Shown in pieces: positions 23,203 to 64,000 of a stretch of DNA of 64,000 bases. The position numbers and the translations under genes are program-made. Source of the DNA: Callorhinchus milii (taxonomy: Eukaryota); assembly GCF_018977255.1 (NCBI RefSeq), contig NW_024704742.1, positions 91,452,001-91,516,000 of the forward strand, in the 5' to 3' direction. The notes under the pieces were generated by a model. It saw only the letters and a list, made by a program, of their open reading frames with translations, did no database searches and was not told the origin of the DNA. Within the stretch, counting starts at the first letter, position 1, and each line of letters begins with the position of its first letter.

Positions 23203-23337
23203 ATACTGCACTGTATTGGCTGCTCAAGGAATATGTCTTAACTGAAGAACAGTTAAAGGAGAATGGATATCCTCGAGAAAATTTTGATAAGCCAGGAGTT
23301 GCACTATTGTTTGGATGTGATAAGTACTATGGTGACC
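23203..23337 (+). CDS. REXO1-like exon 9 (alternative in-frame acceptor at 23182)
   Basis: TALYWLLKEYVLTEEQLKENGYPR; donor C|gtgagt. Confidence 0.85.
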
Positions 23338-24670: not shown

Positions 24671-24727
24671 GTACATTACAGTAAATTCTGTAAACCTCTT
24701 TGAAACACTCACCCTTTGTGGGAGGTG

Positions 24728-24993
24728 CTAGACCTGGGTTCGATTCCCGGCAGGGCAAAACCTTGGGCAAGTTTCCTCACTCTACACGCCTGATAATAAT
24801 CCCTCAAGAAAAAAAACAATAATAAAATTGATCACTTCAATGCCCGACTGTTTGTGGGACACTGCTGTGCACAATTGGCTGCCACGTTTCGCCCACAAAT
24901 ATACCTTCAATTCACTTTACAGTCTATTCTGTGAAGCGCTTTGGGACGTCCAGAAGACGTGAAAAGCGCTATATCAAATGCAAGTATTATTAT
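24728..24993 (+). mobile_element. SINE, 5' truncated
   Basis: B-box GGTTCGATTCC, body and tail. Confidence 0.88.
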
Positions 24994-26550: not shown

Positions 26551-26664
26551 CTTTGAACAAGATTTGCTGCCGTTGTGGAGCATTGTTCTCTGTAACACCT
26601 GGAGGAAGTTATATCTCTAAAAAGGAATGTAAATATCATTGGGAACCAGCCCAAACACAACGAG
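26551..26664 (+). CDS. REXO1-like exon 10
   Basis: LNKICCRCGALFSVTPGGSYISKKECKYHW; tttaag| and G|gtgagt. Confidence 0.92.
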
Positions 26665-27665
26665 GTGAGTACATATTTTAACACCAAATCCTTAAATCAA
26701 TCATTCTTTTATACATGTAAGGGAAAGGATACAGGACTTTCCTCTGGGTGCAAATGGTTGGGAACAATTGATTGTACTGAAAATAACATTCAAAGGGTTG
26801 AACATTTAAATCGATGGGCAGGTAGTCTTTCGTGTGAATAAATTTATTTTTTGCCTGAAACAAGAGTACGCAATAAATCATTAAAATTTTATAGCACAGA
26901 AGGAGGCCATTCGTCCCAAGTGCCTGTGCGGCTCTTTGAAAAAGCTACCAACTAGTCCCACTCCCCCACTCTTACCCTATAACCCTGCAAATTTTTCCTT
27001 TTTAAGTCCATAATCAATAATATTAATAATAAAGTTTGCATTTGATATAGTATTTTCTCAGGTCTTTGAGACATCTCAAAGTGCTTCACAGAATATATTG
27101 TAAATTAAATTGACTGTATTCTGTGTACTAAACACGCAAAAGGCAAACTGTTGGTGTGATTTGTTTGAAAAGTATCCAGTGTAAACTTCCTATCAACCAG
27201 GGTAATCAAGTACTCGGCTTGTTGTTGTTATCATTTTGTGTGATGTTGGGCACCCTACCCTCAAAAATGCTTCTGCATTGGACAGAGCAAAAATATAATT
27301 GTGGGAATTACCAGAAATCGATTATCAAGTATTCACCAAGACAAAATTAATATTCTTCCCAGAGAAGAGCTGAATCCCTTTCTTAGTAGGGAGTTCTTAG
27401 TTTGTGCCGTACTTGACCTGAGATATTGGCACTTGGTTCAAAATGTTTCATATACCACCATGTTTGTGCGTCACTCTATTGGGTACAAAATTCAGATGAC
27501 AATAACTTGCATATATATAGCTCTCCTCACACAGGGCGCTTTATTTTGTGGGGATGTTGGGTACCTTACCTTGGGGCAAAAAGAACATTAATTAAACATG
27601 TCTGTACTTCCAATGACATAGGGATGTTGTACATTTAAAAAAAANGATGCTCTATGTAATTATAG

Positions 27666-27769
27666 TGCCTGGTGGATGGGAAATCCAATACAGTTGCTGT
27701 AAAGGGTCATTGGGATCAGATGGATGTGAGGTTGCTAAGCTATGCAAGACATCAGTAAATGAAAATAAG
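27666..27769 (+). CDS. REXO1-like exon 11 (donor apparently shifted 30 nt downstream)
   Basis: PGGWEIQYSCCKGSLGSDGCEVAK. The expected donor after 27739 reads AAG|ctatgc; an in-frame AAG|gtagga follows 27769. Confidence 0.8.
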
Positions 27770-28176
27770 GTAGGATATTAAGAACTTGTTTTTGCTGTTA
27801 AGTGAAGTCATGCTTATTGTTTGAGATCTACATGTGTAAGGTTTAGCTAGATGATTTCTTCCTGAAATGTGACGAGAGACCATAATGACTCAATCTATTT
27901 TAGCTAAGTTAAAGCAACTTTTTAAATATATATATATATATAATATATTCTTGAATTGCTGAGCTCCCATTTGAAACTGAACTAATTTTTTCACCTTCCT
28001 GGGTTGATATGTGCATTCAAAATTACCAATTGCCCCCTGAAGAATGGAAAACAAAATTATACATGAGAGCAGGTTATTTTCTCTGTGTTCATAGATGGAA
28101 GCATTTTTTTTGTGTGTGCTGCTTTTTTTAATGGCTTTTTGTATGAAGTACTGATGTGAACAGTGCCTCTTCATAG

Positions 28177-28284
28177 TTGCATGTCTGCAATCGAAAAGAA
28201 AACCTTGAAGGTTTTATGAAGACCTTTCTTAGGCTGATGCCCCTTGATGGAAATCCTGGTGTGTTTGCAGTGCACTGTGAGATG
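28177..28284 (+). CDS. REXO1-like exon 12 (ExoI motif, with H in place of D)
   Basis: [17 protein letters not shown]...[10 protein letters not shown]; donor ATG|gtaagt. Confidence 0.92.
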
Positions 28285-28400
28285 GTAAGTATATTTTAAA
28301 AAAAACCTTATTTTTATTTCTGCCCTTTATTCCTTTCATCAAACACTTTTGTCCTAAAATCTTTGTACATGAGACAGATTTGTATGTACCTCCAATTTGT

Positions 28401-28713
28401 GGAGTCCTGTAGCTCAGTGGTTAGAGCACTCGCTTTGCAAGTGAGAGACCTGAGTTCAATTCCAGGCAGAGGGCGAAACCTTGGGCAAGTTTCCTTACTC
28501 CACACACAGCCCTAATAATAATCCCTCCAAAAACAATAATTAAATTGGTCATTTTCAATCTATGACTGTTTGTGGGACATTGCTGTGCACAATTGGCTGC
28601 CGCGTTCGCCCACAAATATACAGTCAATTCACTTTACAGTGTGTTCTGTGAAGCGCTTTGGGACGTCCTCCTGACGTGAAAAGCACTATATCAAATACAA
28701 GGATTATTATTAT
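28401..28713 (+). mobile_element. Full-length young tRNA-derived SINE (short form)
   Basis: A-box TAGCTCAGTGG, TGC anticodon-like loop (tRNA-Ala-like), B-box GTTCAATTCC, L2-type 3' stem-loop, (TTA)n tail. Confidence 0.93.
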
Positions 28714-28911
28714 ATAATTTAATATTGTTTGCTGCTGAAGGTGTGAGTTCATCAAACCTATGTATAATGTATCCTCTTTGTTGGCGATCTCGGGACCTAC
28801 CTATGGCTGGCAGCTTAACTTCTCCAAGGTCAATGCAAATTTAGAAGCAAAAACTAATCTGCCTTTTGGGCATTCTTCAGTTCACTGTTTTCTTGCTTTC
28901 TTCTCTTGCAG

Positions 28912-29027
28912 TGTTACACCAGGCATGGTATGGAAATTGCTCGCGTAAGTGTGGTCAACTCCAGTTTCGAGGTTGTTTATGATACATTTGTTAAACAAGA
29001 TAATGAGGTGATTGATTACAACACCAG
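28912..29027 (+). CDS. REXO1-like exon 13
   Basis: [39 protein letters not shown]; strong pyrimidine tract; AG|gtaaat. Confidence 0.93.
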
Positions 29028-30107
29028 GTAAATAGCATCCAAATTAATTGGTTCTTTTATAGAAGGAGGGTGAGAACTATAATCAGGTATCTAGCTAATT
29101 TGATTAGTGGTAGTTTTCCTTGTTTTTAAAGCAGTTTGTCATTGTGGACAAAAAAAATGATGGAGGGAAGGGTAGTAGGATGACGTAGGATAACAGTTTT
29201 ATAGATATATTCGATTAACTGCTTCATTCCATGCAGACACTGCTAAAATGTGGGACGTGGATCTCAGTTTCATTGTGATGTAAAATGACAAGTTAAAACA
29301 CACAACACAGATGCTGACTTATACTGTAGAAACTAGTTGTAAATAGCAGCAAAGTTGCCAAAGTACATGACTACCTATAGAAATCTGCAATATGAGTTAA
29401 TACATGACTAATACATTTAAAAAAATCTTAACAACATTGCAAAGTTTGAAACTAATCAAAAGCCTGTTTATTCTTGAAGATTTGATAAGAATCAATAGTC
29501 GTCCAACATTTTACTTCAGTGTCTGAGTTGTACTAACAGAAGCACAGGTAGTGTAGCAAACTATAAATGTGCCTTAGTCTATGTTGCACTAAGTTTCCCA
29601 AGGAGGATGGAAGTGTCAGTTTTAAGGTTACCTTTTAACATTGCTCACATTTTATATGGAATAATCAGGAGCATCACAGTTACCATGCTCCCATTTAACA
29701 TAAGGCTCCAACAGGAGTGCTTGAGAATTCCTAGACTTGGTAAGCTTTTGTTTTCAAAAGGGTTATTGGCTTGACCTTCCTTAAACATTGCCAGGATAAT
29801 TTAAGAATCTGGTTGTGATATGACTTGATTTTGTAAAGCTGTTGTTAATTGCCAGACTGCCATTTTTTGACTATTATTTAGCATATCCACAACTCTTGGC
29901 TGTTTCCATAGTGCGTTCTGGGACTTCAAACCTACAAATGCACAGTCTGTCACTGCATCCTACATTAAATCCTTTGAAGCATTTGGTGATGTGATAAGGC
30001 ATTGTAACAAACGCAAGGATTTAGGATGTTATCGTTTATAATATAATTCAATATAAAGTAGTAAGTCATTGTTTTAATGTGGAAACAAATTTGGATTCCA
30101 AAGCAGT

Positions 30108-30610
30108 TCTAAGAACAGGAATAGACCATTCAGCCCCTCAAGTTTGTTCGACCATTCTATAAGATCATAACTGATCTGTACCTCAACTCCAAACACCTGC
30201 CCTTACCCCATATCCCTTGATTCCCCAACCTAGCAAAAATCTAGCCACTTCAGTCTTGAAAATGTGACTGGATCCAGCATCCACAGCCTTTTGGGGGAGA
30301 GATTTCCATTATCCTTTGGGTGAAAAGCTGCTTCCTAATTTCACTCCCAAGTGGCTTAGCTCTAATTTTAACATTATGCCCCCTTGTTCTGGATTCCCCC
30401 ACCAGAGGAAATAGTTTCTCTGTAGCTACCCTAGCGAATCCCTTTATTTTGAAAACTTCAATTAGATAACCCATCAACCTTATAAACTCAAGGAAATACA
30501 GACGAGTTTATGCAAGTTGTTCTTATAATTTAACCTTTTAAGCCCTGATATAATTCTGGTGAATCTGACACTGGACCCCCCCCCCCCCCGAGCCAATATA
30601 TCCTTCCTGA
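30108..30610 (-). mobile_element. CR1 3' fragment
   Basis: ORF GYLIEVFKIKGF..KLFPLVGESRTRGHN; CR1 3' UTR. Confidence 0.85.
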
Positions 30611-30694
30611 GGTTGTCTGAAAAATACAGCTACAGCTTTAGTGGATATTTGTTTATTTTTCTTGCTGCTCAGGTTCTAAATTTTTAATTTGTAG

Positions 30695-30833
30695 ATTTTC
30701 TGGTGTGACACAGAAGGACTTAGCAAATGCAAAACAGACACTTCGTGAAGTTCAGGCAGTGTTACTGAGCATGTTCAGTGCTGATTCCATCATAATTGGC
30801 CATTGTTTAGAAAATGACCTATTTGCACTCAAG
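30695..30833 (+). CDS. REXO1-like exon 14 (ExoII motif)
   Basis: FSGVTQKDL...[34 protein letters not shown]|gtaagg. Confidence 0.93.
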
Positions 30834-33034
30834 GTAAGGCAATTTTATAATTGACAATTTTTGGGAGCAAAAACGTGGAAACTTTATAAAGCTGTAACTT
30901 TTAATTGCTTGAACATTGCTAGGAACAAGTCCACTGGGCTGATTGCTTTTGGCCTAGGTGAGCATGGGTTTGACCTTCATGGGCAGGGCAAGACGGGGAA
31001 AAAAATAGCTAACACCAAAAATTGGGAGCCCAATTAATTGGGCCTAAAATGTATAAAATAACAATTGCACAACTCAAATTAAAATAAAATGCTGGACCTG
31101 GGCTGGAAGAGGGGTGTGCTGCCCCCACTGGTCAGATTTTACACTCGTGTTAATTAAAAAGTGTAAATTTTACCCCGAGTTTCCCTTCACTAAAGGTACC
31201 CATATCACTAACTTCAATGGTGACAATTGCTTGCATTTCTCTCCATTTCCTTAAGCCTTTTCTCAGCACATTGGAATGTCCTCCCATCGTGAAAGGCGCT
31301 ATATAAATTTAATGTTTTCTAACCTGCCCTTCCATGCATTACCTGAGGTCACTTTGCCAACTTTGTGTATATCCCTTTCTTGATGTTCCCAAGTGATGAC
31401 AAACCTGAATTTGAAACTTTTTTTGTGGCTTGTAATCAAAAAANTGTTGATATATTTCAGCCTTCCTGCATGCACTGAGGTAGTTCCCATTAATCTGTGT
31501 TATAATAGTTAATTTCAGGTAACCACTATGCCATTCGCCTATGCAAGAATTCATTCCATTTTAAAAGAGAAATAAAGATGTTTGAAAATTCTTTCCTTCC
31601 TTATTTTGTTTCCAGTTAAATCACACTGAAATGTATTTTGGGTGTTTGACATTATTTTTGGTCAACTAAGCTCTCATTCTCTTATTTGATGCACGTGGCA
31701 GTGAATATTCATGGATGCCAAAATTTGCTGTAGGTATCGGGTTGGCTCAGCTGGTAGCTCACTTGCCTCTGAGTTGGAAGTCTGTTAGGACTCAGCTCAT
31801 ATTCTCGGCTGACACTCCAGTGCCTTGCTGCTAGAGCAGGTACATCAGTCATTCACCTCATGGCTGTTTGTGGGACATTGCTGTGTGCAAATGACTGTTA
31901 TATTTACCTACAAATAGTCACTGCACCTGACAGTAATTTACCTGTGAAGCATTTTGAAAGACAACAAATGCAAGGATCATGATATTTGTAAACTTGGGCT
32001 TCCAGTTTATGCCAAGTTTCAAACGGCAGCACTGTTTCTTTCTTTAACAATCCAATGCTAAACCCCAGGTAAAGAGATTATTCAAAGTACTGAAGTACTT
32101 TATTGTGAGAATGCTCTTTGGTAAGTAGAGAATTACCTATTTTTGCAGAAAGTTATTTCTTTGGAATTATGATCGTTGCGATCCCCTTGTAAAGATATTG
32201 ACTTGTGTTGGGGTTCATTTTTGATTTCACAGTCCTCTAATACTTGCATTCTTCATGTTTTAGCTGATACATTGAGTGTTGCCAGACTATTTGAACTAAA
32301 GACCATCATAGTGGGGGCCTGTGTAGCAACATAGGTCTCAGGTTTCTCATGTTGTTGGTCTTAAGAACATGATCTGCAAAAATTCAAATTGTGTAACTTT
32401 TGAAAACTTTCTCAAATTTGTTTTCAATTTTGAAGCTGACCACTGTACCTTCTATCAGTAATGATAATTACTTGGTTACCTGCGGCAGTAGTGGGTTGGT
32501 GAAGTAATAGTAATTACTTGGTTACCAGTGGCGATGGTGGTGGGCCAGTGAAGTCTGGCTCATCCTCTCTTTTAAAGATGTATTGACTTGCGAATTGCAA
32601 GAGAGAACGTTCTTGCCTTAAACATCCCTGAATGTAGGAATCAGCCTGGGTGTTGCTATCCAACGTTTTTTGGTGAAGAATGGACATCGAATGAGGGCAG
32701 CATTTGTCTGGACTTCACTCACCCTAACTCACCCCCTCCCTAGTAATGCGAATAGCCTGTCAGAACTCTGACCATTTGCCTTGTAACAGTTTTGTGCTTG
32801 TTAATTTAACAATCAGTTGGTTGTTTGGGGTGGGAGAGACTGTAAAATCTCCATCTACAAGTTCTAACATTTTTATCAATTTTTTTTTAAAAAAAGCAAT
32901 TACATTGATGATGTTTACTTCAACCGAATGATACCTTGTTTTGGTTAAACAAGGATTGAATGTTGCAAACTTATTTTCCTAAGAATTTTATGTTGATTGC
33001 AATTTTACTTCAGATAATGTTTATTTTCTTTCAG

Positions 33035-33155
33035 ATTATACACAGCACAATTATTGACACGTCTATTGTCTTCCCACACCATTTGGGTTTACCTCACAAG
33101 CGAGCATTCAGAAACATAGTGGCGGAGTACCTCAGACATATCATCCATGAAAAAG
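33035..33155 (+). CDS. REXO1-like exon 15
   Basis: IIHSTIIDTSIVFPHHLGLPHKRAFRNIVAEYLRHII; G|gtaagt. Confidence 0.93.
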
Positions 33156-34097
33156 GTAAGTAACTGTATTCTCAGTATGGAAAAACAGTGAGATGTTGAG
33201 AATTAAATACACCTCAGCCCTGTGACTGGAAGGGCTGGACAGATGATGTGAAATGTATTGAATCAGTGGAATTGTTCATGTACGTTTAAATTACCTGTGT
33301 TAGTAAATTGTTTGCTTTAAGCCCTTCTCTTTTGTCAGATTCACTAAAATGGCATTAACTAAAATTTTGGAGATAATTATACAGAATGTACTATTATTAG
33401 TCTTGCCACTTACCCAGCGCCTTGGGACGTCCTCCCAACGTGAAAGGCGCTATACAAATGTAATTTTGTTGTTGATGTTGAATTATTTTCCAAGCTTATA
33501 GGAATGTTGGTCTAACCTTCAGAGTGAATTTAGAGATCCCTTAAGATTTGAATATAAATTACTTAGATGGGGCCTGAGGATGATGTTCCCTTTATTTTCC
33601 CCTCCCCTACAACCACTTGGCTCTCTCAATGCTGACGTTCATGAAGCTGACTCATTTGTCTTGTGGATTATGGCTTCTGCCTGCTGGTAAACAGGATTGT
33701 GGCTTAGTTTGAATGTTGTACTAAAACTGTTATCATATTAATGCAAGATCCAGCTTTCTGAACGATGGCAATGTGTCTTTTGTTGTATCCAGTAGTGTAT
33801 ATCAGCATTGTGGAATTCACTAACAGCTGCAAACTACACTAAACAATCAGCTTTGCAGTTTTTTTTAAAAAAATGATAATTTTTAGATGTTCACATTTGC
33901 GATGCCAAAGAACACTTTTTTCCCTGCATTCTAATCTACTGTACATTGAGCAGAGAATAACTAGTGGGCAGTAGTTTCCACAACAAAATGGTTTAGCACT
34001 ATGAAGATTGATAGTAGGTGGAACATAATGTTCTGGGTGCTAATGGTTAACTTGCATTAAAACCAGATTTGATTTCCCTCCATCTTTCTTTTACTAG

Positions 34098-34189
34098 CTG
34101 AAAGCCACGACTCCATTGGGGATGCTCGCGAATGTGTCGAGCTAATGATCTGGAAAGTGAAGGAGGATGCAAAAGGGAAAAGGCAGTGA
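34098..34189 (+). CDS. REXO1-like exon 16 (ExoIII motif, stop)
   Basis: ESHDSIGDARECVELMIWKVKEDAKGKRQ*; acceptor ttactag|. Confidence 0.92.
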
Positions 34190-44598: not shown

Positions 44599-47309
44599 TC
44601 AGAAGATTGGTTCTGAGGAAGCCCTTTAGCCTATCTGATCTCACCCCTCCACAACACCCACCCTCCCATCACAGCATTAATTAAGTCCAATATCCTGGCC
44701 ACAACCACCCTTCCCGGTAACCTGTTTCATTCACTATTTACCCTCTGGGGAAACAAAAGCGTCCTGGTATCTGAAACTGTCTTTTGCAATTCTGAATTTA
44801 TAGGTCCTCTTGTTCTATTGTCTCATTGGATTGTAAAGTATTCATCTGGGCCTAGTTTTTCAAGCCTATTTAACATTGTGTAGACCTCTATAAGGTCGCC
44901 TCTGAGTTGCCTTCTCTGTAGACTAAAGAGCACTAGCCTGTCTAATCATTGCTCATTCCTCTAACAGGATATTTGTGCAATTCATTTTGGAAGAATCCTG
45001 AAGGAATACTGGTCTAGATCACTCAATAGAGGCTGCTATGGCAAGAACATTGAATTGCAAAATTCCAACAATGCTCAAAGCATATCAACATTCTGTTATT
45101 TTCATTCATTCTGTTATTTTGGTTGATATTTTATTCATTGAGAATTAACAAGGCAGAAAAAAACATTTTCCTTCTTCTTTTTCATTTGTTCCACCTGCAC
45201 TCAGTTTGTTGCGCTAACATGCCCCTAATCCCCTAATGCTCTCTCACTAAGAGGATTTGCACCTTTTCAATGATTAAAGGATTGTGAGATCAGACAGAGA
45301 CAGGTTTTTCTTGGGTGTGGTGGAGGTGGGCTGCATAAAACAGAATACCGAGAGTCGCTAAGTTATCTTCACAACTGGTAATAATGTCAAATGAATTGGA
45401 GGAAGTCACTGATTTGCAATAAAAGGAAAATGAAAGTATTCGATTACAAAATACAGTCCCTGCACATTACTTTAAATCCTGCCAGATGCTTTGAGACATC
45501 TTCCCAATGTGAAGGATGCCATATCAAATGCAAGGATTGTTATTATTGTTAGTTATTATGAAGAGGGAGAGTGAAAAAAGGAGACTGAAAGAGTGTAAAA
45601 AATCTGCTTTAGGTGAAGTTTTTCCATAATTTTAAATTGTGTCCATGTTTTCGATGCTTTGAGCAAACAACAGCTATGATGGTTTGTTATCACTTTCACT
45701 CGTTTATTTTGTTCTAAGCAAGTTGCAGTCTCTGCCCACTCTCTGCCATATCTGTTAACAGGAGAGTCTTTATCAGAATCTGCCTTGACCTGATCTCTAA
45801 TTTGTTACACTAATAATCCTTGCAGTTGATGTACATCAGGATGTCTCAAAGTATTTCAGCAGGTTTTGTTGTAAAGTGTAGTTATTATGTATTTTGTGGG
45901 TGAAGGCACCAGCCAATTTGTGCACAGCAATATCCCACAAACAGCCACAAAATAAAAAACTAGTTTCCTCCCTTTGTGCGTAGGCACTTGTCCTAGATAG
46001 GAACCACTAGAGTCCTAGAGATAAAAAGGCCTATTTTCAGAGGGAAACTTTGCCTTGCAAGCCAGAAATTTCAGATATAATCAAGTAAACTGCTTGGTGC
46101 TAACCCAATACAGCAATACTGGAAGTAATGCAATCTTCAGAAGAGTTATACAAGAAAAACCAAGGTGCAGCTTAATCTTGAACAGTGCTATTGCTCTTGG
46201 AGGGACCTCAGACCATTCTGAAGTGTTGCCACAATTGTTAATGGTGCTATCCCTTTAAAACTATTGAATGCTCCTGCAGTGTTCAGCTCCCCAACTTTGT
46301 GCGCCAAGGCCTGCCCCTTGTTTAGTCAGACAGGTGCACTTAGATCAGCCCATTCCTTAAATATCTTTTCTCTATTGGCTCCAGTCAGACTCTGCTCTAA
46401 TTGGACTCTTATTTGCAGTTAAACCAGCCCGAGTATTCCAAGCACCAGAGATTTTGCTTCTGTAATTCCAAAGACTGGAACACTTTTTCCCTTATATCAT
46501 CTGTTCTCACTTACAACTGGAGCTCATTGGAAAGAAACATTCTCCTCTTTTGAAACAAGGGACTTGCTAACTGCTGTGCCAGGTGAGTCCCAAGTGGTTA
46601 CTTATTGTTTATCTCACTAGTACATGACTAATCTATATAGTGGCCCACCTGTACATTACAATGCAGATCAGTTAATATTAACCTGACTGTTCATTCACAG
46701 CATTTCTGATTTATGCAGTTGAGACACTTAATAACACTTAACCCTATGGTTAGTGTCTGTACATGTTTATGGCTGTTCAGTTTAGTGCCTCTTTTGCTGC
46801 TTAGTTACTGTGCTGTTGAACAGCTCTTAGTAATAACGGTGGAAAACCAGCTTGCACATTATGACCGAATTCATGAATTTCCTGAATTTTGCACCATCTT
46901 GAGTTTCAAGACAATGACCTTAAGGCAAAGACCAGAAGAAATGTTGTTGCCTCAGAAGCAAAAACCTGTCTGAATTTCTTCTCCTCTGTAACCTGGACAA
47001 TGGGGCCAGTAATAATCCCTATAAGTCCTGGCTGAGATCAGCTAATGCAGCATTTCCCCATCCCCTGTGGTGATGAATTTTGGACTTTCCAGGTCTGTAT
47101 GGTTTAGTTTAATACTTGTCCTTCTCGCTAGGTAGTGGACAAAAAGGAATCCTGTATTATTGTCTTCCAGAGCTCAAGTTCCATTCAAAGTATTATGCTA
47201 CATGTAATTCACATGTACAAACATTGTCGTCATGAGCTATTTCCTGTTTCATACAGCTGCTTGCTCTCTGTAGTGATGATAAGTACTGGTTATACAATAC
47301 AAAATACAA

Positions 47310-48260: not shown

Positions 48261-48930
48261 ATTAAAGAGGAGAAGAACGAGGAACAGGAACTGTACACTA
48301 CACAAATCCAAGCCATGGTGGTAATGAGCATTGTCTTCTGCATTCTTGATACATCTTTTCTTATTCTCTGATACTGGCTCCTTTGTAATGGTGGGAACAT
48401 AAAACCCCTGGTTTTAGACAGAGCTTTAAACTAGCACCAAGACCTGCACATTTCTTGTAGACCTAGAGCGTAGGATGTGAGTCAAGAACTGAACATAAAT
48501 CAATCTCATGCGACATCGTTAATCTAACTTTCTCTTTCAGACACTGATTGACTCTCTGTGGATTTCCAGCATTTTCTCTTTTTAGTTCAGAGTTTCTTGC
48601 ATTAAAATAATCCTTGATTTGATATAGCGCGTTATCACATCATTGAGACAAAGTGCTTCACAAAATATACTGTAAAGCAAATTGACTACTATAATTTGTG
48701 GGTGAAATATTATCCCAAATGCAAGGAATATTATTATTTTTCTTTGTTCTGCACTGTATAATAATAATCCTTGCATTTGATATAGGACCTTACCACGTGT
48801 TTGAGACGTTTCAGCTCTTCACAGAATATACTGTAAAGTGAATTCACTGCATTTTGTGTAGCTCTTAAGGTTGATTCTCACTGATATTTTGCTTACTATT
48901 TGAACAGGACCATTTGGATGAGGTTGGAGA

Positions 48931-49069
48931 ATGAACATGATGAATGATCAGGGAGTTGGCAGATTTTCCTCTGCCATTTCCAGTACCCCTCCCTCCCTGT
49001 ACAGTTTCTACCAGCAGGGGCTGTACCCCATGACTCCTCATGTTCTCACACTCGCCCAACGCCTGACAG
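48931..49069 (+). CDS. DMBX1-like homeobox gene, coding exon 1
   Basis: MNMMNDQGVGRFSSAISSTPPSLYSFYQQGLYPMTPHVLTLAQRLT resembles the DMBX N-terminal HALTLAERLA motif. Donor G|gtacgg, phase 1. Not in the supplied ORF track. Confidence 0.8.
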
Positions 49070-49836
49070 GTACGGAAAAATTCTACCCAGTTAGGCTCAG
49101 TTAGATATAAATAACACTGCCACTGATCCTTTACACTTTACTTATCTCTCTCTCTCTCTTTCTCTCTCATATTTTCTTACAGACTCATTAAAGTAAAGGT
49201 ATAAGTTGCACTAATGTTCATTTTCCAGTTCAAACTCTTTTTCTCTCAGTTTAGTTTGAACAGTTATACTCGAGTTTAAAACATTACATCATTGCATTAG
49301 ATGATACAGGGCAATCAGGCAGTCCAATTACTCTGTTTCCTCCTTAGGTTGCACTTCCTTTCCCAGAGCATGACTAGCCTTTACCTAAGGCAGGGTGATG
49401 AATACCCTCTTATACTGCATACATCGGCAATAATGTGGAGCTAAATCTTTCAGTCAGCTCCAGAGGCTTGCAGGACATGATTATCTGCACACACGCACAG
49501 TGCATTAGTATTGCAATGATGTCAAGATGTCCCCTTGATGGAACATCTTGACACTATTGCAATACCAAGAGTGGAGCCTGGAAGGTGTGCCTAAAAATCA
49601 GGTGGCTTAATAAGAAATCCCATTAGAAATCCCGCATTTTGCATGCCAGCACCACCTTTTTAGAGCACACATTAGATTGTTCAAAGATACAAGAAAATAA
49701 AACAGTCCTCTATCTTCAAGGTCTTTTCAAGGTCCCTTTCAATCATTGTGTGAAGCATACAAATAACTGTACTTTTGTGATGAAGGATATTACCTCAAGC
49801 AGGAAGTGGAATTGCTCATTCTGTTGTTGGGTATAG

Positions 49837-50012
49837 TCCTTGAGGTGAGATACAGGAATCATCACTATGAAAAGCAGAGACGAAGCAGGACAGCATTCAC
49901 TGCTCAGCAGCTGGAAACCCTGGAAAAGACATTCCAGAGAACCCACTATCCCAATGTAGGAATGAGAGAGACACTGGCAATAAGCACAAACCTGCCCGAG
50001 GCAAGACTGCAG
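49837..50012 (+). CDS. DMBX1-like coding exon 2 (homeodomain residues 1-46)
   Basis: [58 protein letters not shown]; donor CAG|gtaacc at the canonical PRD-class Q46/V47 intron position. Confidence 0.92.
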
Positions 50013-50299
50013 GTAACCTCTTTCACTGGCCTGACTTGGCAAAAAATCTAAACTTCTTTCCCAGAAAGAGCGAGAGATCTGGATGCTGTATTTTTGTTTG
50101 GAAGTTTCCTGACTATGTTAGTGGATGTGAGTGGGGTGGCTGCGGCTGGAGGTGTGCGTGTGGGTGTAGGTGGTTGTACATGTGTGCGTGCATGCTTCTT
50201 TTAAAGTGCTCTCACCGCTATCAGAAATGAATTAGTTTACAACTGATATATAGTGCTTAGAGTCAGATTCTATTATATTGTTAATTTTGGTCCATCTCT

Positions 50300-51332
50300 G
50301 AACATAAGCACATAAGAATTAGGAGCAGAAGTAGGCCATTCGGCCCCTCTAGCCTGCCCCGCCATTCAATAAGATCATGGCTGATCTATTCTAACTCCAC
50401 CTACCCGCCTTATCCCCATATCCCTTAATCCCTTTATTCACAAAAAATCTATCAATCTCAGTCTTGAATATGTTCAAGGACTGAGTATCTACAGCCCTTT
50501 GGGGTAGAGAATTCCATAAATTCACTACCCTCTGAGTGAAGAAGTTTTTCCTCAACTCAGTGTGAAAGGGCTTACCCCTAATTTTAAGACTGTGACCCCT
50601 GGTTGTAGTTTCTCCAACTCGGGGTAAAAGTCCCCCACTATCTATTCTGTCGTGCCCTTTAATAATCTTATAGGTCTCTATAAGATCACCTCTCATTCTT
50701 TTATATTCTAGAGAATATAGGCCTAAATTGCTCAACCTATTCTCATAACTCATCCCCCTCATCCTTGGTACTAACCGAGTGAATCTACATTGTACCCCCT
50801 CCAAGGTGAGTAAATAGGAAGCTCAAAACCGCACACAATACTCTAGGTGTGGTCTCACCAGGGCCCTATACAGTTGCAGCAATACTTCCCTACTCTTACA
50901 TTCTAACCCTTTTGTAACAAATGCCAACATACTGTTAGCCTTCCTAATTGCTTGCTGTACCTGCAAACTAACTTTTTGTGACTGGCGTACAAGGACACCC
51001 AAGTCCCTCTGAACGCTAACACTATCTAAACTCTCCCCTTCTAAAAAATAATCTGTTCTGCTATTTTTGCCACCCAGGTGCATGACCTCACACTTCCCTA
51101 CATTATACTTCATTTGCCACCTATTTGCCCACTCACCTGGCCTATCTATATCTCGTTGGATTTTTTTAATGTCATCCTCGGTGTTTACTCTCCCTCCTAG
51201 TTTAGTGTCATCTGCGAATTTGGATATATTAAGTTTGATGTCCTCATCTAAATCATTGACGTAGATTGTAAATAGTTGAGGCACTCCACTAGTCACATCC
51301 TGCCAATCTGAGAAGGACCCGTTTATCCCTGC
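50300..51332 (-). mobile_element. CR1 LINE 3' part, in the intron splitting the homeobox
   Basis: ISKFADDTKLGG, LVRPHLEYC, MRGDLIETYKI, NFFTQRVVNLWNSLP. Confidence 0.93.
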
Positions 51333-51571
51333 TTAGAGATTTGTGGATATAATGTTGCTCCAGATTAAATTGTTTTGCTCAATGAAGTTTTTATTAAAGG
51401 ACTCAGCATACAGTCTATCTTTGAGTACATGTGATGTCTGTTTACTAGTGAATCACATGGTCTAATCATTGGGCTGTGGTGGGAGCGAGGGACAGTGATA
51501 GTTGGATGGGCAGTTTTGGCTTAGTCAGATGTTCATTCTGAAATGGAGTTTGTCTCCTATCAATCTTCTAG

Positions 51572-51890
51572 GTGTGGTTCAAGAACAGGAGAGCAAAGTT
51601 TCGTAAAAAGCAGCGCTCTCTCCAAATAGCACAATGTCAAGGGAAGGACGAATGGCAGGTTACGGAGTCCGAACAGAAACAGGAAAAAGACTTGAAGCCA
51701 GTCGACAATGAGAGGAAGAGCCTAAGCACAACTCCCAAGGGAGGGGAGAACCAGCTCCCTTTGTTATTGGATTACAAAAGCCCTGTTAATGACTTGGCCT
51801 CTCTGAGTTCACTGGCACTCGCACCGTATTCTAATCGCACAATATTACACAAACCGTGGGATAGTGAACTCAGACTCCATGGTGTTGAAG
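51572..51890 (+). CDS. DMBX1-like coding exon 3 (recognition helix, K50)
   Basis: VWFKNRRAKFRKKQRSLQ; ttctag| and G|gtaatt. Confidence 0.92.
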
Positions 51891-52334
51891 GTAATTCAGT
51901 ATTGGAAACATTTTGATATGTTTGTGAAGGAGTGAGAGGGTTTGTGCAACCAAAGTAACCTCAAACGTGTTGTTATCTTTAAATCCTTCCCTTATATTTG
52001 TATATATATACATATATAATATATATATATACTATTATATATATATACGCACACATAGGCAAGAGTTAATGGTTAGTATCCCATTCCTCGTGCTAATAAA
52101 CATATGTTCTCTCCTCACTGTCTCTCCTGAAATTATTTTTCCTTTTACTGGAATACAGTTTTCCACATTGCTCCATTCCTCTCCTAAAGACACCGAATCT
52201 TCCCGAGGCACAAATCTATGGACAATTTGCTTCCTCGCCCAAGTAGCTAATCTTTATGTCTGAGGTTATTTGACTTTGCTGGACCTTGCAGTTGAGCTTA
52301 ATCCTGTTATTACCTGCTGTTCCTCACAAAAGTC

Positions 52335-53695
52335 CTAGAACACGTTGTTGCCAATCAACTTCGCACAAACCTCTCCTCCCATTCCCTCTTTGAACCCCTC
52401 CAGTCCAGTTTCCGCCCTGCCCACAGTACAGAGACTGCGCTTGTGAAAGTCACAAACGACATCCTCTCTATCAGTGACCAGGGCCCCCTCTGCCTCCTTG
52501 TTCTCCTGGACCTTTCCACCGCGTTCGACACAGTCGATCACGCCATCCTCCTCCACCACCTTTCCTCCGTCATCCACCTCAGTGGGTCCGCACTCACCTG
52601 GTTCGAGGCCTACCTCACAAACCACCAGCAGTACATCTGTACAATGGCTTCTCCTACCGCTCTCAACCGGTCACCTGCGGGGTACCCCAAGGATCCATCC
52701 TTGGCCCCCTCCTCTTTCTGATGTACATGCTCCCTTTTGGGGATGTCATCCGCAGACATGGGGTACACTTCCACATATATGCAGATGACACCCAACTATA
52801 TTTTCCCACCTTTCTTTGTGACCCCCAGTCCCCTGATGTTCTGTCAGCCTGTCTGTCAGACCTCAGGAGCTGGATGAGTGCAAATTTCCCTTCAGCTGAA
52901 CATTGACGAGATGGAAGCCATACTCTTTGGCTCTCTCAACATCTAAAATCTCATGGTTCTCAACTCCTCCACCTACCTGACCTCCCCCTAAAACTCTCCG
53001 AACCAGTACGCAATTTAGGCGTCAGGTTCGACCCTCAATTATCCTTCCTCCCCCACATCCGGTCCCTCACCAGCACCGCCTTCTTCCACCCCCAACGCAT
53101 CGCCCGTCTCTGCCAATATCTCTCTCCAAAAGCCGTTGAAACCCTGATCCATGCTTTTGTCGCCTCTCAGCTGGACTATTCTAACGCCCTCCTCGCCGGT
53201 CTCCCCTCCACTACCATCCATAAAATCCAGATTATTCAAAACTCTGCCGCCCGCATTCTCACCCGCACCAAACTCTGCTCCCCGATCACCTCAGTCCTTG
53301 CCAGACTGCACTGGCTGCCTGTCCCAAAGAGGATTGACTTCAAGATCCTCACCCCTGTCTTCAAATCCCTCCACTCCTCTGCACTCCCCTACCTCTCTGA
53401 CCTCTCTCCTCAAAACAGTGCCCGTGGCCTCCTCCTTGTTCCCCGAGTCCTCCGCTCCACCCTTGGTGGCCGTACCTTCAGCCACTGTGCCCCGAGGCTC
53501 TGAAACTCCCTTCCTCACTCCCTTCACCTCGTCCCCTCTCTTCCTATTTTTAGGTCTCTGCTGAAGACCTTTCTTTTCGACTGCGCCTTTGGTCACCTTC
53601 TTCCCCCTGGCTTGGCCCGGGGATCCGTTACTGTGAAGCGCTCTGAGATGCCTTCTGGCATGGAGGGCGCTATATAAGTCCAAGTTGTTATCATC
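52335..53695 (+). mobile_element. L2 LINE 3' part (frameshifted)
   Basis: [32 protein letters not shown]; 3' stem-loop tail. Confidence 0.92.
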
Positions 53696-54047
53696 TGCAT
53701 GTAATCCACCAATGTCACTGAATAGTGACCAGGTCAAAGATGTTGGCAGATAATTTTCCTCCCTCACCCTAGGATGCTAATTTTAGCATCTCTCCTGAGG
53801 TTGGCTCACTCAGCACAGAACAGAAATCAAAACAAGTGTCCTTCCAGGTAGCAAGACTCCGTGTTACTCCAGTTATTCCAGTCAATATCTGTAAATATAG
53901 AGCAATTAAACACAAGTGTTTAGTGGTGTTCAGATTAACTTCACACTCTAAACGGGCCTCACCCTATTCTGTGATCTTCAGCTTTTTGTTACTACACTGA
54001 AGAAGATGAATGGAGTTTGTAAGCTGTTGCATATGTTTCTCCTGCAG

Positions 54048-54454
54048 GTGCTGATTCTGATATCGGAGGTTTACGTTGTCTGACGTCTTTGGTAACTCCC
54101 ACCCACTCGTCAAACATGTGTGTTTTGCAGGATGATTTTAGCAGATATGTTCCCATTCCTGGGTCCATTGGCTGCTATTTTTCTTTTGACCTTCCATTGG
54201 GTACCAGCCCTGTTTCCTACATAGACATCAACACAGCTACTGCTCTGTGTAATATGCAGTGTCAGCAATGCCCGCAAGAAGCCTGGACTTGTCCCATCCC
54301 CGGGAAGCTGACAAGACTGACCTCCAAATCCTCCAGTATTGAAAGCCTGAGGCTCCGTGCGAAGCAGCATGTGATGGCTCTTGGGCTGCACAAATCCAGC
54401 ACAGCAAGAGAATACAGGACGATAACAAACACACCTAGCTGGGAATTACATTAG
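54048..54454 (+). CDS. DMBX1-like coding exon 4 (OAR motif, stop)
   Basis: Acceptor cctgcag|, phase 1; LTSKSSSIESLRLRAKQHVMALGL is an OAR motif. The spliced CDS is 1041 nt, 346 aa. Confidence 0.9.
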
Positions 54455-55489
54455 AGGGGAAGTGAGATAGGCGAGCCTGTTCTTCAGGTGCATGTTAGCT
54501 GTGAGGAGCATGGTGATGGGTTTCCGAATGTATCGAGATACCCGGTTGACCAACAAAAATTAAACATCTTATCATATTTATTCAAAAAGAGAAGTTTCTC
54601 TCAGCCTCCAGACGCACAAAACCTCCAGATAAAGTGTGATGGCTATTTATTTGACTTTGATGGATTACCTACAAAAGAAAACACTTCATGGCACTTGACA
54701 GGAATTACTAGCAAAGTACTTTGAAATCTTTTGATATGATAAGTTGCTACAAGAAGTTAAACGTTTTTATGTTCTTATTCTAATGGCACAGAATGCTAGT
54801 TTGCCAATGTACTGTGGTGCACTAGATGTAGGACATAAATTACTATTCATAAGATGGTGAGGGGATGGTCATTGGTTTCCAGGACAGAGAGAGAGAGATG
54901 GGAAGGAGCTTGTGAAGTAATCTTATTCGACTCACATGCCATGTTAGTGAAGAATGTCAGTGACCATTTATAGGCATGTGGTAAATGGAGTTGCCATTCA
55001 ATCCATTTGCGCCTGTTGCAGCAGGCTGATTCTTATATAAAACAATAATATTTTTTGCATTTGATATAAAGTTTCAGCGTGTTGTCAAAATGTCTCAAAG
55101 CACATTACAGAATTTTACTGTGAAGTGCAGTGACTATTTTTTAGACAAATGTGACAGCTAATTTACACACAGCAATGTTCCACAAACAGCCATGAAATAA
55201 ATGAATTATTTTATTTGGAGAATTAATTGGACAAAACGTCAACTTTTCAATTGTGCCATAGAATCTGTAACATCCACCTGAATAGGCAGACACCTCCAAC
55301 AAAACAGCATCTCCAGCACTGAATTGGAGTGTAAATCTAGACTCTAGATTATGATTATTTCTTTGCAAAAAAAATAACAGATTGAAATGTTTCCAATGAA
55401 GTCAACATTGTGGCCTGGTTTAAGAGTTATGAACAGACTTCATCCTTTAAATGAATAATACAAATCCCAATATTGCGGGTAGTGGAAAT

Positions 55490-59618: not shown

Positions 59619-59978
<360 letters not shown>

Positions 59979-60460
59979 TTATGCTTTTGAAAAAGTTACA
60001 AAATGTTAAAAAAATTGTGACAATCTTAAAGTTACAATAAAAAAGTGCTCTAAAGAGATGAATTTGAAAGCACTTCTGACCATTTTTGCTCCATTCTTTT
60101 GTCAAGAATACACAAATCAAGATTACAATACATTATAGAGGATATCGAATAGACTACAGTGTAACAGGATAATCTGCTTGGTAGGAGCTTGGCATTTGTT
60201 GAGATTATAGAGTACTCAAGCACTGAATTTCCTTGTTAGCTTTTAAAATGACACCACCAGTCTATGACACACAGAGCTTCAGGTAACAGTTTAAATTATA
60301 GCCTCTAGAGAGGATGTGACTACCTGACTGGTCCTCATTCACCATAAATCCTTCACTCTCTGAATTTTCTATGGTCTCAGGAGTGCTTTCTTTGAGGATA
60401 CTTGTCTCCACTCAATGCAGTATGGCTAGCAAATCACACTCAGACTTCATGTCTGAAAGT

Positions 60461-60783
60461 GGAGTCCTGTAGCTCAGTGGTTAGAGCACTCGCTTTGCAA
60501 GCGAGAGACCTGAGTACAATTCCAGGCAGGGCGAAACCTTGGGCAAGTTTCCTTACTCCACATGCCTAATAATAATCCCTCCAAAACCAAAAACAATAAT
60601 AAATTGGTCATTTTCAATCTATGACTGTTTGTGGGACATCGCTGTGCGCAATTGGCTGCCGCGTTCGCCCACAAATATACAGTCAATTCACTTTACAGTG
60701 TGTTCTGTGAAGCGCTTTGGGACGTCCTCCCGACGTGAAAAGCGCTATATCAAATGCAAGGATTATTATTATTATTATTATTA
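60461..60783 (+). mobile_element. Full-length young SINE in a TEK intron
   Basis: Near identical to 28401-28713. Confidence 0.93.
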
Positions 60784-60958
60784 CAGTAAAACTCGCATAA
60801 ATCTGATCAGTACAAATCATATAATCGCCTAAGTTGCACATCTGCCTGAGTCCTGTTCAAGAGTTTATAATTCTATGCAAGGTTGACATAACTCATACTT
60901 TGCATAAGTCATATTAAATATATGGTCCCAACTGATACGACTTATGTGATCTTTACTA
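60784..60958. mobile_element. Old MITE with imperfect terminal inverted repeats of about 29 bp (Tc1/mariner-pogo type)
   Basis: 5' TA|CAGTAAAACTCGCATAAATCTGATCAGT versus the reverse complement of the 3' end, TAGTAAAGATCACATAAGTCGTATCAGT. Confidence 0.55.
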
Positions 60959-61199
60959 CAGAGTTAAGAGCCGATACCTCCATGTCTCATTGATGTGACT
61001 GACAATCTGGACAACCTCCAACAATGCCTATGATTATTGCGACCTGCCTGGCTTCTCTTGACAACTCGGCCTCAGGGAAAACTTGCTCAATAAGCTGGAA
61101 AGGCTAACGATCCAAAGCTCAGCATTCATTTTTATGCTGAGGGGTTCTACATCCACTGACAAGGGGAGTCAAATGTATTGAAGGATTTGAGGAACTTAC

Positions 61200-61296
61200 A
61201 CTTCACCGACACAGTTCAATGGTTTTTCCATCCTGTATCCTTGGGGTAGTTTCTCATAAAGTTCAGCACAGGACATCCCACAATATGGCGTGCCAC
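61200..61296 (-). CDS. TEK: TEK exon (kinase)
   Basis: [32 protein letters not shown]. Confidence 0.95.
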
Positions 61297-61419
61297 CTAG
61301 CCACAGTTGCAAAGCAAAGAAGGGTTATTTTATGTTATCCTTAAACAGGACAATTTCAATAGTTTAGACGAACCATGCAAGAGTAAAATACCGTCGTGTA
61401 AAATACTGGGGTGAAAAAT

Positions 61420-61810
61420 ATAATAGCATTTGACAATAGTGCCATTTCACACTGTTGAAACGTCTCAGAATGCTTCAGAAAATTTATTGTAAAATATAGT
61501 AAAATATCAGCTGAGTATAAATAGCTGAATGTGGCAGGCAATTTGTGCACAGCAATGCCAAATAAATAGCCATGCGGTGAATGCTCAATTTTATGTGGAG
61601 GATTGTTGGGCAGGACATCATGAGAAATTCCCTTCTCTTTTTGAGTAGTGCCATGAAATCCTTAACATCCACTTGAATAGGAAGATAGGACTTTGGTTTA
61701 ATGTCTTACCGAACAATAGCACCCCTGACAAGGCAGCATATCCCTAGAATGCCAGCCTAAACTAGAAACTCAAAGTCTCATCGTGGGCTTGGACCCATAG
61801 CCTTCTGACA
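61420..61810 (-). mobile_element. Old Deu-domain SINE
   Basis: Similar to 42540-42925. Confidence 0.6.
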
Positions 61811-62218
61811 CCTCAACACCAAGATGTGATGTTTCATAACAGATTCAAGGTGGTAAATATCTCAGAGATGGGCAGGAGATATTCACTATTTTACACACTC
61901 AGGGAAGGAATTCAATTCAATTTGATTCACTCTAGTCTCTTAGTTTTCCAGAATTTTGAAAATTCTTAAATACAGCCTTACTTCTGAAACCAGCTGTCTG
62001 TAAGTATTTTTCCAAATTAATGAAAATTGGCTTCAAAGTTATGACTGATTTCAACAGTTTGCTCTGAAAGGCTAAGAGAATAAAAACTGAAATGTTTGAA
62101 ATCTGGAGAGGTGGAATTCAGCCCGTATATAATTGTGGGCTCACTGGTATCATATAAACTCCTGTCTCCTCGCATTCCACATGGTTACGTGAATGAAGTA
62201 AAAGATTGCATCACTTAC

Positions 62219-62259
62219 CTAAACTAACAATTTCCCACAAGAGAACCCCATATGACCAC
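62219..62259 (-). CDS. TEK: TEK exon (kinase subdomain IX)
   Basis: WSYGVLLWEIVSLG; 41 nt with canonical splice sites. Confidence 0.95.
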
Positions 62260-63083
62260 CTGCAAAAAGAAAATTCAGTGAGTGAATGTTATATGTTTAC
62301 AGCTCTTTGGTGATGGGTTATGATTGAGAAACAAGTCATTGTTCTATATATATATGCAGTTGGATCACTTTATCTGAAAAAGGTATTGTTGTAATTTCTG
62401 TTTGTTAAGAATGTACAAAACAATGAAACAAAATTTGTGATATTCATAATGTGTTTTTATTGACCATATTATTATAATACTAATAATCCTAGCATTTGAT
62501 ATAGTGCCTTTCATGCTGGGACGATATCTCAACAGGATTTATTGTAAAGTGTAGTGACTGTGTATGTTATAGGGGAAATTTAGCAGCAGTGAATTTGAGT
62601 ATAGCAATTTCCCACAAAGTCAAGTAGAGGAAGAGGGTCACAAGATCTCAAGATTACAAGACTAGTTTGAATGATGAAGGCCCTTCGGCTCATATGATCC
62701 TCCTGAACACCCAGCTTATTTTTCTCCCATTACAGCATCAAGCATCTTTTTAAATAAGTCCAGTGTCCTGGCCTCAACCACCCTTCCTAGCAATCTGCTC
62801 CAGTCATTAATTACTGTCTAGGTAAAGAAAAACTTGCTGGTGCTTATCCTGAAATTTCCCTTTGCAACTCTATATCTATGTCTTTTTGTTCTACTATCTT
62901 GGTGCATTCTAAAGTAAATAGATTCTGTAAGTTGGGGGAAGTAGCCTCAATGAGCAGATCAGGAAGCTTAAGCATGTGCTCTGAGGATGTTAATACAAGC
63001 AGATACAGGTGGAGGTTTCAGGCTGTAGATAAACTAGCAGAGTCAGGCCCAATCCTAGTGTGAGGTGCAGAAGTGAAACTTAC

Positions 63084-63154
63084 ACATCGCTGTTCGTAGT
63101 GTAAACGCTGTAATTTAAGGACTCAATAGCCATCCATCGAACAGGAAGCCTTCC
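63084..63154 (-). CDS. TEK: TEK exon (kinase subdomain VIII); the gene continues beyond the window
   Basis: GRLPVRWMAIESLNYSVYTTNSDV. Confidence 0.95.
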
Positions 63155-63328
63155 CTATCAAGAACAGAAATTCAAAAATATTGCATTCAAAGTATCTACG
63201 CACACATATTGATTCAATAATAATAATCCTTGTATTAGATATGGTGCCTAATCGCATCAAAATTTCTCAACGGACATCACAGAGGCTTCTGTACAGTGTA
63301 GTGACTGTGTGTTTCTAGGTGACTCAAG

Positions 63329-63490
63329 TAGTTATGTTTTTTATATAAAAATAAAAATAGTAAACATTTAATTTCCTTTATATAAAATTTACTGTCTCTC
63401 AATTAAATGTTTACTATTTTTGTTTTTATATAAAAAACATAACTAGTAAACATTTAATTGAAAAACAGTAAATTTTATATAAAGGAAATT
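63329..63490. repeat. AT-rich interleaved inverted repeats
   Basis: 63329-63373 pairs with 63401-63445; 63370-63416 pairs with 63444-63490. Confidence 0.85.
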
Positions 63491-63619
63491 ACTACCATAT
63501 CTATATACGCACAAAAAGCTAACTGTGTTATCATGTCTCATGTCTCATGGGCCGGTTTACGATGAATTGCGTAAAAAGGCTGACTTCTGGGCGTTGTCAG
63601 GTCATTGCTGATTATTTCC

Positions 63620-63900
63620 ACTGGTTGGTGAGTCAGTGAATAGAGAGCATCAATTTAAGATAACTACCAAAGATCCAAAGCGGGAGGATTAGAAGGATGT
63701 TTTTATACAGAGTCGCTAGGATATGGAATGCCCTGCTGGATGCAGTAGTGAAGGTAATATCCATAGAAGCTTTCACAATAGGGAACTAACACCTATCTAA
63801 AATGAAGTAATTTTCTGGGGTATGGGAAAAAGCAGGTAAATAGGAACTTTTTTAAAGAGCCAAAACAGTCACAATGGGCCAATATCCTTCTGTACTGTAA
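63620..63900 (+). mobile_element. Degraded CR1 3' fragment
   Basis: ttatttccactggttggtgagtc...tttttatacagag...tggaatgccctgc. Confidence 0.65.
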
Positions 63901-64000
63901 ATTTCTTTTGTTCCAGCAGAGAGCAGTAGATTTAAGTACTGTGCCAAGATTGTCTTATGAGATAAAGTCATGCCTTCAAAACCTTGTAAGGGAAAGAATG

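Follow-up and report, generated by a model that had tools for sequence, protein, structure and literature searches.

Which member of the Dmbx homeobox family stands beside TEK in Callorhinchus milii, and when did it arise? The question is raised by a stretch of 64,000 nucleotides (nt) of contig NW_024704742.1 (assembly GCF_018977255.1, positions 91,452,001 to 91,516,000 of the forward strand), here called the window, on which positions are counted from its first letter. A first-pass annotation had described there an intact, divergent second Dmbx gene, a retained paralogue of DMBX1 to be called 'Dmbx2'. It is indeed a paralogue that has been retained, distinct from the DMBX1 orthologue, but the genome contains three Dmbx genes in all. 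It is most probably an ohnologue, likely the alpha2 copy of the vertebrate genome doublings, a reading to which we give a probability of roughly 0.78.

Dmbx loci and family membership

The second coding exon of the TEK-linked gene gave 43 matches in the genome. The TEK-linked gene itself lies on the sequence designated C1, the second match lies on C5 and the fourth on C21. The C5 match is the separate, more conserved locus that was sought; it encodes a protein of 365 amino acids (aa) whose homeodomain is the canonical, invariant one of DMBX1, and in a tree of 37 proteins and 261 columns it is joined to zebra-shark DMBX1 (support 100/99). DMBX1 was the best genome match after the TEK-linked gene itself (80%), all remaining matches being at 67% or below, and the named top protein matches of both exon 2 and the full protein were DMBX1 proteins. 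Judged from its homeodomain the TEK-linked gene belongs to the Dmbx family, nearer to Dmbx than to Otx, Pitx or Gsc.

The C21 gene is P0269, another C. milii protein labelled 'DMBX1-like', so that the gene beside TEK is not the second but one of three. Intron phases 1-0-1 are common to all three loci, and their comparison gave no conspicuous conserved non-coding match. No fourth Dmbx gene, recognized by the upstream motif of the family, was found beyond C1, C5 and C21 among the 30 matches that were taken for translation, of which one gave no translation and two only a Q50 exon, 13 weaker matches being outside this set. None of the 43 matches was a homeobox on C29.

Relatives of the C21 gene were named in three teleosts, two rays, reedfish, bowfin, coelacanth and lungfish, and also in a newt and a turtle. 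Their occurrence in these last two animals contradicts the statement in PMC2954992, where Dmbx is treated as single-copy outside teleosts, that land vertebrates have a single Dmbx1. Proteins of this clade carry the database labels DMBX1-like, uncharacterised and even Pax-6, and an atlas look-up of one member gave no name for the clade. A further pair of diverged Dmbx proteins without OAR motif, P0252 (Coilia grayii) and P0253 (Sardina pilchardus), is nested with teleost dmbx1a (91/87) and, on that placement, appears to be a separate, later duplication in herring-family fishes.

Conserved gene order

On C21 one strand carries MOB3, MKNK, REXO1 and Dmbx in this order. On C1 the order on one strand is MOB3, REXO1 and Dmbx, followed by TEK on the opposite strand, and on C5 it is MOB3, MKNK and DMBX1, with a TIE paralogue 1.17 Mb from DMBX1. 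The setting of DMBX1 (MKNK1, MOB3C and the TIE1/JAK1 chromosome) is thus found around the C5 gene and is missing around the TEK-linked gene. The neighbour had been correctly taken for TEK, since all four matches of its exon were TIE-2 structures and an Ig_Tie2_1 domain lies further along the contig. The REXO1-like gene, which on C1 follows a MOB3 gene and precedes TEK, is a paralogue that has itself been retained; a total of two EloA-BP1 loci were found in the genome.

A similar arrangement is listed for hagfish chr7, where TEK (140.14 Mb), DMBX1-1 (EA30952, 140.39 Mb), MKNK2 (140.48 Mb) and MOB3B (140.59 Mb) follow each other (PMC10972751); the order comes from supplement rows without strands, with one row between TEK and DMBX outside the accessible part. 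A Dmbx gene beside TEK therefore arose before the jawed vertebrates.

Four JAK genes, on C1, C5, C21 and C29, show how these regions are related. The quartet is resolved as (C1,C21)/(C5,C29) by 56 informative sites versus 5 and 3 for the other pairings, over 691 columns from 14 collinear exons and with 100/100 support. In the accessible part of PMC10972751, TEK and JAK2 are labelled alpha2, JAK3 beta2, TIE1 and JAK1 alpha1, and TYK2 beta1, while Dmbx1 appears in the alpha1 column only of a table of neural-crest genes. Because C1 pairs with C21 and the published labels make TEK alpha2, the TEK-linked gene is assigned to alpha2. DMBX1 would then be the alpha1 copy and the C21 gene probably the beta2 ohnologue, with beta1 lost. 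The TEK-linked gene most likely split from DMBX1 at the first genome doubling (1R) and is the sister of the C21 gene. An ancestral block TIE-DMBX-REXO1-MKNK-MOB3 would have been doubled at 1R, one branch leading to DMBX1 (alpha1, C5) and the other, doubled again at the second round (2R), to the alpha2 copy on C1, the TEK-linked gene, and the beta2 copy on C21, the latter subsequently losing its OAR motif.

Gene structure and transcripts

The four coding exons (Table 1) join into an open frame of 346 aa through GT-AG introns of 767, 1559 and 2157 nt, and the LTLAQRL motif (49045), homeodomain, RSLQ and OAR motif lie where the first-pass annotation had placed them, with VWFKNRRAKFRKKQRSLQ at 51572. 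The homeodomain is paired-like, with lysine at position 50 (K50) as claimed and an intron between codons 46 and 47. It reaches 50.1 bits in Pfam from exon 2 alone and the OAR motif (PF03826) 26.2 bits against a cut-off of 20.1; PF00046 and PF03826 are the sole domains on the exons of the gene and on the database protein P0001, and no paired domain is present in either. The C-terminal block of the last exon is DMBX1-like and reaches 37% identity with its C5 counterpart across 99 columns. The estimate of about eight changes in the homeodomain relative to DMBX1 is exact: 8 of 60 positions differ (A15T, K22R, D27N, V29G, R33T, M36I, C37S and V45L).

Upstream of the homeodomain the family motif LAERL...LEARY takes the form LAQRL-TV-LEVRY, in which two residues are missing and Q replaces E. 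The exon 2 acceptor position, AG in both paralogues, reads GG here and the AG 6 nt downstream is used instead; this shift removed the two residues from the motif. Among 230 proteins the spacer between LAERL and LEARY has 4 residues in 196, from 5 to 9 in 32, and 2 only in the two records of the TEK-linked gene.

Thirteen sequencing runs were available, of which the seven guessed to be RNA contain 7-22% of the words, about the exon share; the RNA nature is a guess of the tool and contig depth does not rank tissues. Contigs were compared over the gene for runs X1-X4 and over its upstream part for X1, X2, X5 and X8, X1 and X2 being from different studies. Contigs of X1 and X2 cross all three coding introns at the predicted exons. 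One X2 contig of 864 nt comprises 46429-46579, 48905-49069, exon 2, exon 3 and part of the last exon, and one X1 contig of 1002 nt joins exons 2-4 and continues to 54552. The 5' non-coding exon is spliced from 46582 to 48908; a second X1 contig (311 nt) also joins it (46462-46579) to exon 1, while an X8 contig reads straight through its donor, unspliced. The unique part of intron 1 had no cover in X1-X4, and none of the pieces listed for X5 lies on the first exons.

The protein is already in the databases. P0001 is UniRef A0A4W3HK03, 'DMBX1-B-like' from Callorhinchus milii, and differs from the window allele at two residues; its cluster also contains the 343-aa record V9KYB2, an entry of a type that we take to be cDNA-derived, and a RefSeq model of 363 aa named DMBX1. 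This model (XP_042202770.1) uses an acceptor at 49786 and thereby gains 17 residues (49786-49836), for which the contigs give no support. In X2 the sequence following 49069 matches the beginning of exon 2 at 49837, and the form observed is accordingly the 346-aa one, not the 363-aa model. The gene has thus been annotated automatically, under a misleading DMBX1 name, and the plain name together with the unsupported acceptor could misdirect orthology work.

Constraint on the coding sequence

Between the TEK-linked gene and DMBX1 the proportion of synonymous differences (pS) is 0.73-0.76, which is saturated; in the homeodomain pS is 0.73 and the proportion of nonsynonymous differences (pN) 0.072, values that average the whole history and are blind to recent relaxation. 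The MOB3 paralogues have a pS of 0.79-0.80, comparable to the Dmbx split, saturation giving a minimum age only. When neutral evolution was simulated, 2% of the runs retained an open frame at 0.1 substitutions per site, and none of 2000 did so at 0.2. Lamprey, shark, lungfish and frog have one and the same DMBX1 homeodomain, which places all eight changes on the branch of the TEK-linked gene. Constraint on this homeodomain, as estimated from sequence, has been long-lasting and looser than on DMBX1; for comparison, the ratio of nonsynonymous to synonymous substitution rates (dN/dS) of the Dmbx family is given as 0.036 in the accessible text of PMC2954992.

Phylogeny and competing explanations

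In the best tree the TEK-linked gene stands outside the gnathostome DMBX1 group on a long terminal branch (1.8, versus 0.03 for C5 DMBX1), and the REXO1-linked C21 clade (97/97) excludes it. The pairing of the TEK-linked gene with the C21 gene alone is the only one rejected by the approximately unbiased (AU) test (p 0.002). The tree shows paralogy with C5 DMBX1 but does not date the split.

Several observations weigh against an alpha2 ohnologue with a kept function. The gene tree does not place the TEK-linked gene, which branches from an open fork close to DMBX1 and to the lamprey gene. The AU test keeps a join with C5 DMBX1 (p 0.149), with chondrichthyan DMBX1 (0.258) and with all DMBX1 (0.417), and sisterhood with the C21 clade is likewise not rejected (0.146, or 0.30 when the second lamprey gene is added); the preferred topology lies 2.85 log-likelihood units under the best tree. 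The sequence is nearer to DMBX1 (52/60) than to the inferred sister on C21. The JAK markers are distant, at 13.5 Mb on C1, 17.4 Mb on C5 and 1.4 Mb on C21, and Dmbx is filed under CLGQ/CLGM and TEK under CLGL in the accessible part of PMC10972751. A single X3 contig passes from intron 2 to exon 3 without splicing. Not one of 273 other Dmbx-like homeodomains carries D27N, R33T or V45L, which also fits decay, and variants that change an amino acid (two well supported and two in single records) are at least as many as the silent ones (two).

These last two points bear on the possibility that the gene has the same ancient origin and is now under relaxed selection, a transcribed ohnologue heading for loss without a distinct job. 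The replacement variants are G30R and K174E, with at least two sources each, and C236Y and G263V, each from a single record and the latter at depth 2; the silent ones, S18 and T228, are seen in runs and records. Decay would also be consistent with the two residues lost from the family motif, the long terminal branch, the upstream open reading frame (ORF) overlapping the start and the lack of an orthologue in the protein collections. However, the frame is open, canonical splice sites are in use, the broken acceptor of exon 2 was replaced in frame, and among the variants seen in runs and records none falls in the homeodomain or the OAR motif, although the variants are too few to settle recent relaxation of selection. 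The low pN relative to pS points the same way, though as an average over the whole history. We consider ongoing decay unlikely, but a chance to be reckoned with.

The gene could instead be an ohnologue whose 2R sister is DMBX1 and not the C21 gene, the Dmbx block departing from the history of its chromosome. The best tree does set it on the DMBX1 side, weakly (86/29), and such a departure would agree with PMC10972751, where Dmbx is assigned to a linkage group different from that of TEK and MOB3. The JAK quartet, the alpha2 label of TEK versus the alpha1 label of TIE1 and the retention of REXO1 beside Dmbx on C1 and C21 only all favour the C21 gene as sister, as does a pS of 0.61 to the C21 gene, below the 0.73 to DMBX1, a comparison of about 43 sites only. 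As for the likeness to DMBX1, 169 of 175 DMBX1-like matches have an identical homeodomain, and since DMBX1 has barely changed the shared residues are mostly ancestral states, present in lamprey too. A DMBX1 sister is quite improbable.

A later duplicate of DMBX1, arisen in cartilaginous fishes or chimaeras, moved beside TEK and diverged rapidly, would account for DMBX1 proteins being nearest by sequence, for the common RSLQ, C-terminal block and OAR motif and for the joins with C5 and chondrichthyan DMBX1 that the AU test retains, and the herring-family fishes do have such diverged DMBX1 duplicates. RSLQ, the C-terminal block and OAR are also found in lamprey Dmbx, however, and are hence ancestral, and the synonymous saturation equals that of the MOB3 ohnologues. 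The copy would moreover have had to land with all its introns, on the same strand, in the slot that its C21 paralogue occupies after REXO1 and beside TEK as in hagfish, which makes a late origin very improbable.

There is only a slim chance that the gene is the orthologue of zebrafish dmbx2 and so already named: that name exists, for zgc:101100 (10.1101/2022.05.24.493215, accessible part), and V29G recurs in 16 of 29 KGQ-type homeodomains, but the sole diverged Dmbx clade found in bony fishes is that of the C21 gene, the bowfin model fuses a C21-type gene to REXO1, the clade has no OAR motif whereas the TEK-linked gene has one, and no teleost protein grouped with the TEK-linked gene among the 98 K50 representatives that were treed. 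The C21 gene is perhaps dmbx2. 'Dmbx2' is unsuitable for the TEK-linked gene until zgc:101100 has been placed, and the name first proposed is not retained.

The gene shares some features with each of its nearest relatives and differs in others. With DMBX1, also known as Otx3 or Mbx and here the gene on C5, it has in common the arrangement of exons and their phases, RSLQ, the C-terminal block, OAR, an upstream MOB3 gene and 52 of 60 residues of the homeodomain, but it lies on another chromosome, adjoins the REXO1-like gene and TEK instead of MKNK, and has a shortened LAERL motif and an unalignable linker. With the REXO1-linked clade of the C21 gene it shares K50, the intron phases, the slot after REXO1 and an inferred 2R sister chromosome, and with the C21 gene itself EVRY instead of EARY. 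That clade is widespread, differs by 10-16 of 60 changes, lacks OAR and ends the homeodomain in K-G-Q or similar, whereas the TEK-linked gene keeps OAR and KKQRSLQ. The second lamprey Dmbx, P0287, has G29 in common with the TEK-linked gene.

Other features of the window

Table 1. Positions of the TEK-linked Dmbx gene, its neighbours in the window and the C21 Dmbx gene
Feature	Position	Strand	Basis or remark
REXO1-like gene, EloA-BP1 and exonuclease exons	10851..34186	+	Limits approximate; paralogue of the gene before the C21 Dmbx
Dmbx 5' non-coding exon, donor CAG/GTGAGT	46429..46582	+	X2 and X1 contigs
Dmbx first coding exon, ATG at 48931 (coding part 48931-49069), LTLAQRL 49045-49065, then phase-1 intron	48908..49069	+	Sequence, contigs
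Upstream ORF, 9 codons, out of frame, over the start codon	48918..48947	+	Start context weaker than that of the main ATG
Dmbx second coding exon with VLEVRY and, from 49875 on, homeodomain positions 1-46	49837..50012	+	Pfam, X2 contig
Dmbx third coding exon, homeodomain 47-60 with K50 (51572-51613), RSLQ, diverged linker	51572..51890	+	Contigs
Dmbx last coding exon, C-terminal block, OAR about 54326-54370, stop	54048..54454	+	Pfam, contigs
Dmbx proximal 3' untranslated region, ATTAAA at 54559	54455..54564	+	X1 contig end 54552, X2 contig end 54525
TEK 3' exons, tail to tail with Dmbx	59619..64000	-	Gene extends beyond the window
C21 Dmbx (P0269), directly after REXO1, K50, without OAR	G000:C21:6403727-6405787		Translation, tree

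The first position of the 5' non-coding exon is the end of the longest contig, and its true start is possibly further upstream. A reverse CCAAT box and a TAATTG site are found at 46374 and 46398, 30-55 nt 5' of this end, and the upstream region has no CpG island. The upstream ORF spans all three candidate start codons and, judging from its position, may dampen translation. Smaller contigs continue past the proximal 3' untranslated region as far as 55013. Introns 2 and 3 (50300-51330 and 52300-53700) contain broken reverse-transcriptase fragments of the long interspersed nuclear element type with heavy cover by repeat contigs.

In the REXO1-like gene, spliced X2 contigs join 33105-33153 to 34096-34257 near the 3' end. 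Exonuclease motif 1 (28267-28284) reads AVHCEM, compared with ALDCEM in C21 REXO1; the histidine takes the place of the first catalytic aspartate. This possibly means an inactive nuclease, or else a variant or an error of a single letter. Across the window N occurs just twice, at 27645 and 31444, both times inside the span of this gene.

Predicted function, distribution and implications

The TEK-linked gene likely encodes a transcription factor. K50 homeodomains recognize TAATCC, positions 28, 42 and 43 serve cooperative dimerisation in the paired class, and helix 1, the loop and helix 2 face away from the DNA. Positions 46-60 and the N-terminal arm are the same as in DMBX1, including the DNA-reading residues R5, V47, K50, N51 and R53, so that DNA reading is predicted to be unchanged, and the dimer positions are unchanged as well. 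The eight changes cluster in helix 1, the loop and helix 2, V45L being a conservative core change; these surface and contact assignments follow the general structure of homeodomains. Prediction of the structure from the single sequence was uninformative (predicted local distance difference test score 31.6).

PMC2954992 and PMC4974023 portray DMBX1 as a repressor of the K50 type, able to dimerise with Otx2, and reviews credit it with repression of Otx2-driven transcription. Acting singly or dimerised, the TEK-linked factor would bind TAATCC as well as palindromic sites, while the changes in helix 1, loop and helix 2 together with the shortened LAERL motif would alter or weaken contacts with co-factors. 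It would then most likely compete for K50 sites or repress from them more weakly, in a restricted range of tissues, rather than stand in for DMBX1 in the midbrain. We lean, by a little, towards such a mechanism of kept site occupancy and changed or weakened partner contacts. The first-pass proposal of an unaltered DNA specificity with modified interaction surfaces is a prediction from the residues that were kept and those that changed.

No closer relative was found elsewhere. Against longer proteins, none of the best 120 of 414 matches of exon 2 exceeded 76% except the gene itself; for the full protein the best 120 of 743 matches contained no relative closer than DMBX1; of 11 candidates for the last exon among proteins of 73-235 aa none was orthologous; and the best 150 of 17231 matches to 50% representatives, of which 20 were named and the 98 K50 ones treed, gave no closer relative. 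These searches covered annotated or gene-called proteins and not unannotated shark or chimaera genome DNA. Sharks, rays, gar, bichir, coelacanth and lungfish were among the matches or representatives with their other Dmbx genes, and on this distribution a Dmbx gene beside TEK has likely been lost outside chimaeras. A weak hint comes from bamboo shark and frog, in both of which the gene numbers leave a gap of one from TEK to MOB3B. Pdx2, Pax10, Alx3 and the Kazald quartet are, in the accounts accessible, likewise developmental genome-doubling copies kept in few lineages, but of different families, and retention of the TEK-linked Dmbx has so far been seen in one species.

Among the papers listed in the literature outside subscription journals, none describes a Dmbx gene linked to TEK or a third one in vertebrates, and the supplements of PMC10208646 have no Dmbx entry. 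In the accessible part of PMC10972751 it is argued that Dmbx has no paralogue of similar function; the hagfish positional counterpart EA30952 is listed there with a homeodomain only and with top expression in ovary, likewise its MOB3 neighbour. As a tentative scenario, somewhat below even odds, at least three Dmbx genes were present at the origin of jawed vertebrates. The alpha2 copy would survive in chimaeras only, after separate losses in sharks and rays and in bony vertebrates, as a specialised K50 factor, possibly gonadal like the hagfish counterpart, with a re-cut partner motif, and the beta2 copy would persist, for the most part unnoticed, to amphibians and turtles.

The finding is a correction of the Dmbx repertoire rather than a new mechanism. 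The TEK-linked and C21 genes would fill the alpha2 and beta2 slots that are empty in the table of PMC10972751, and with three genes in one animal a post-1R origin of the role of Dmbx1 in the cranial neural crest and midbrain becomes testable.

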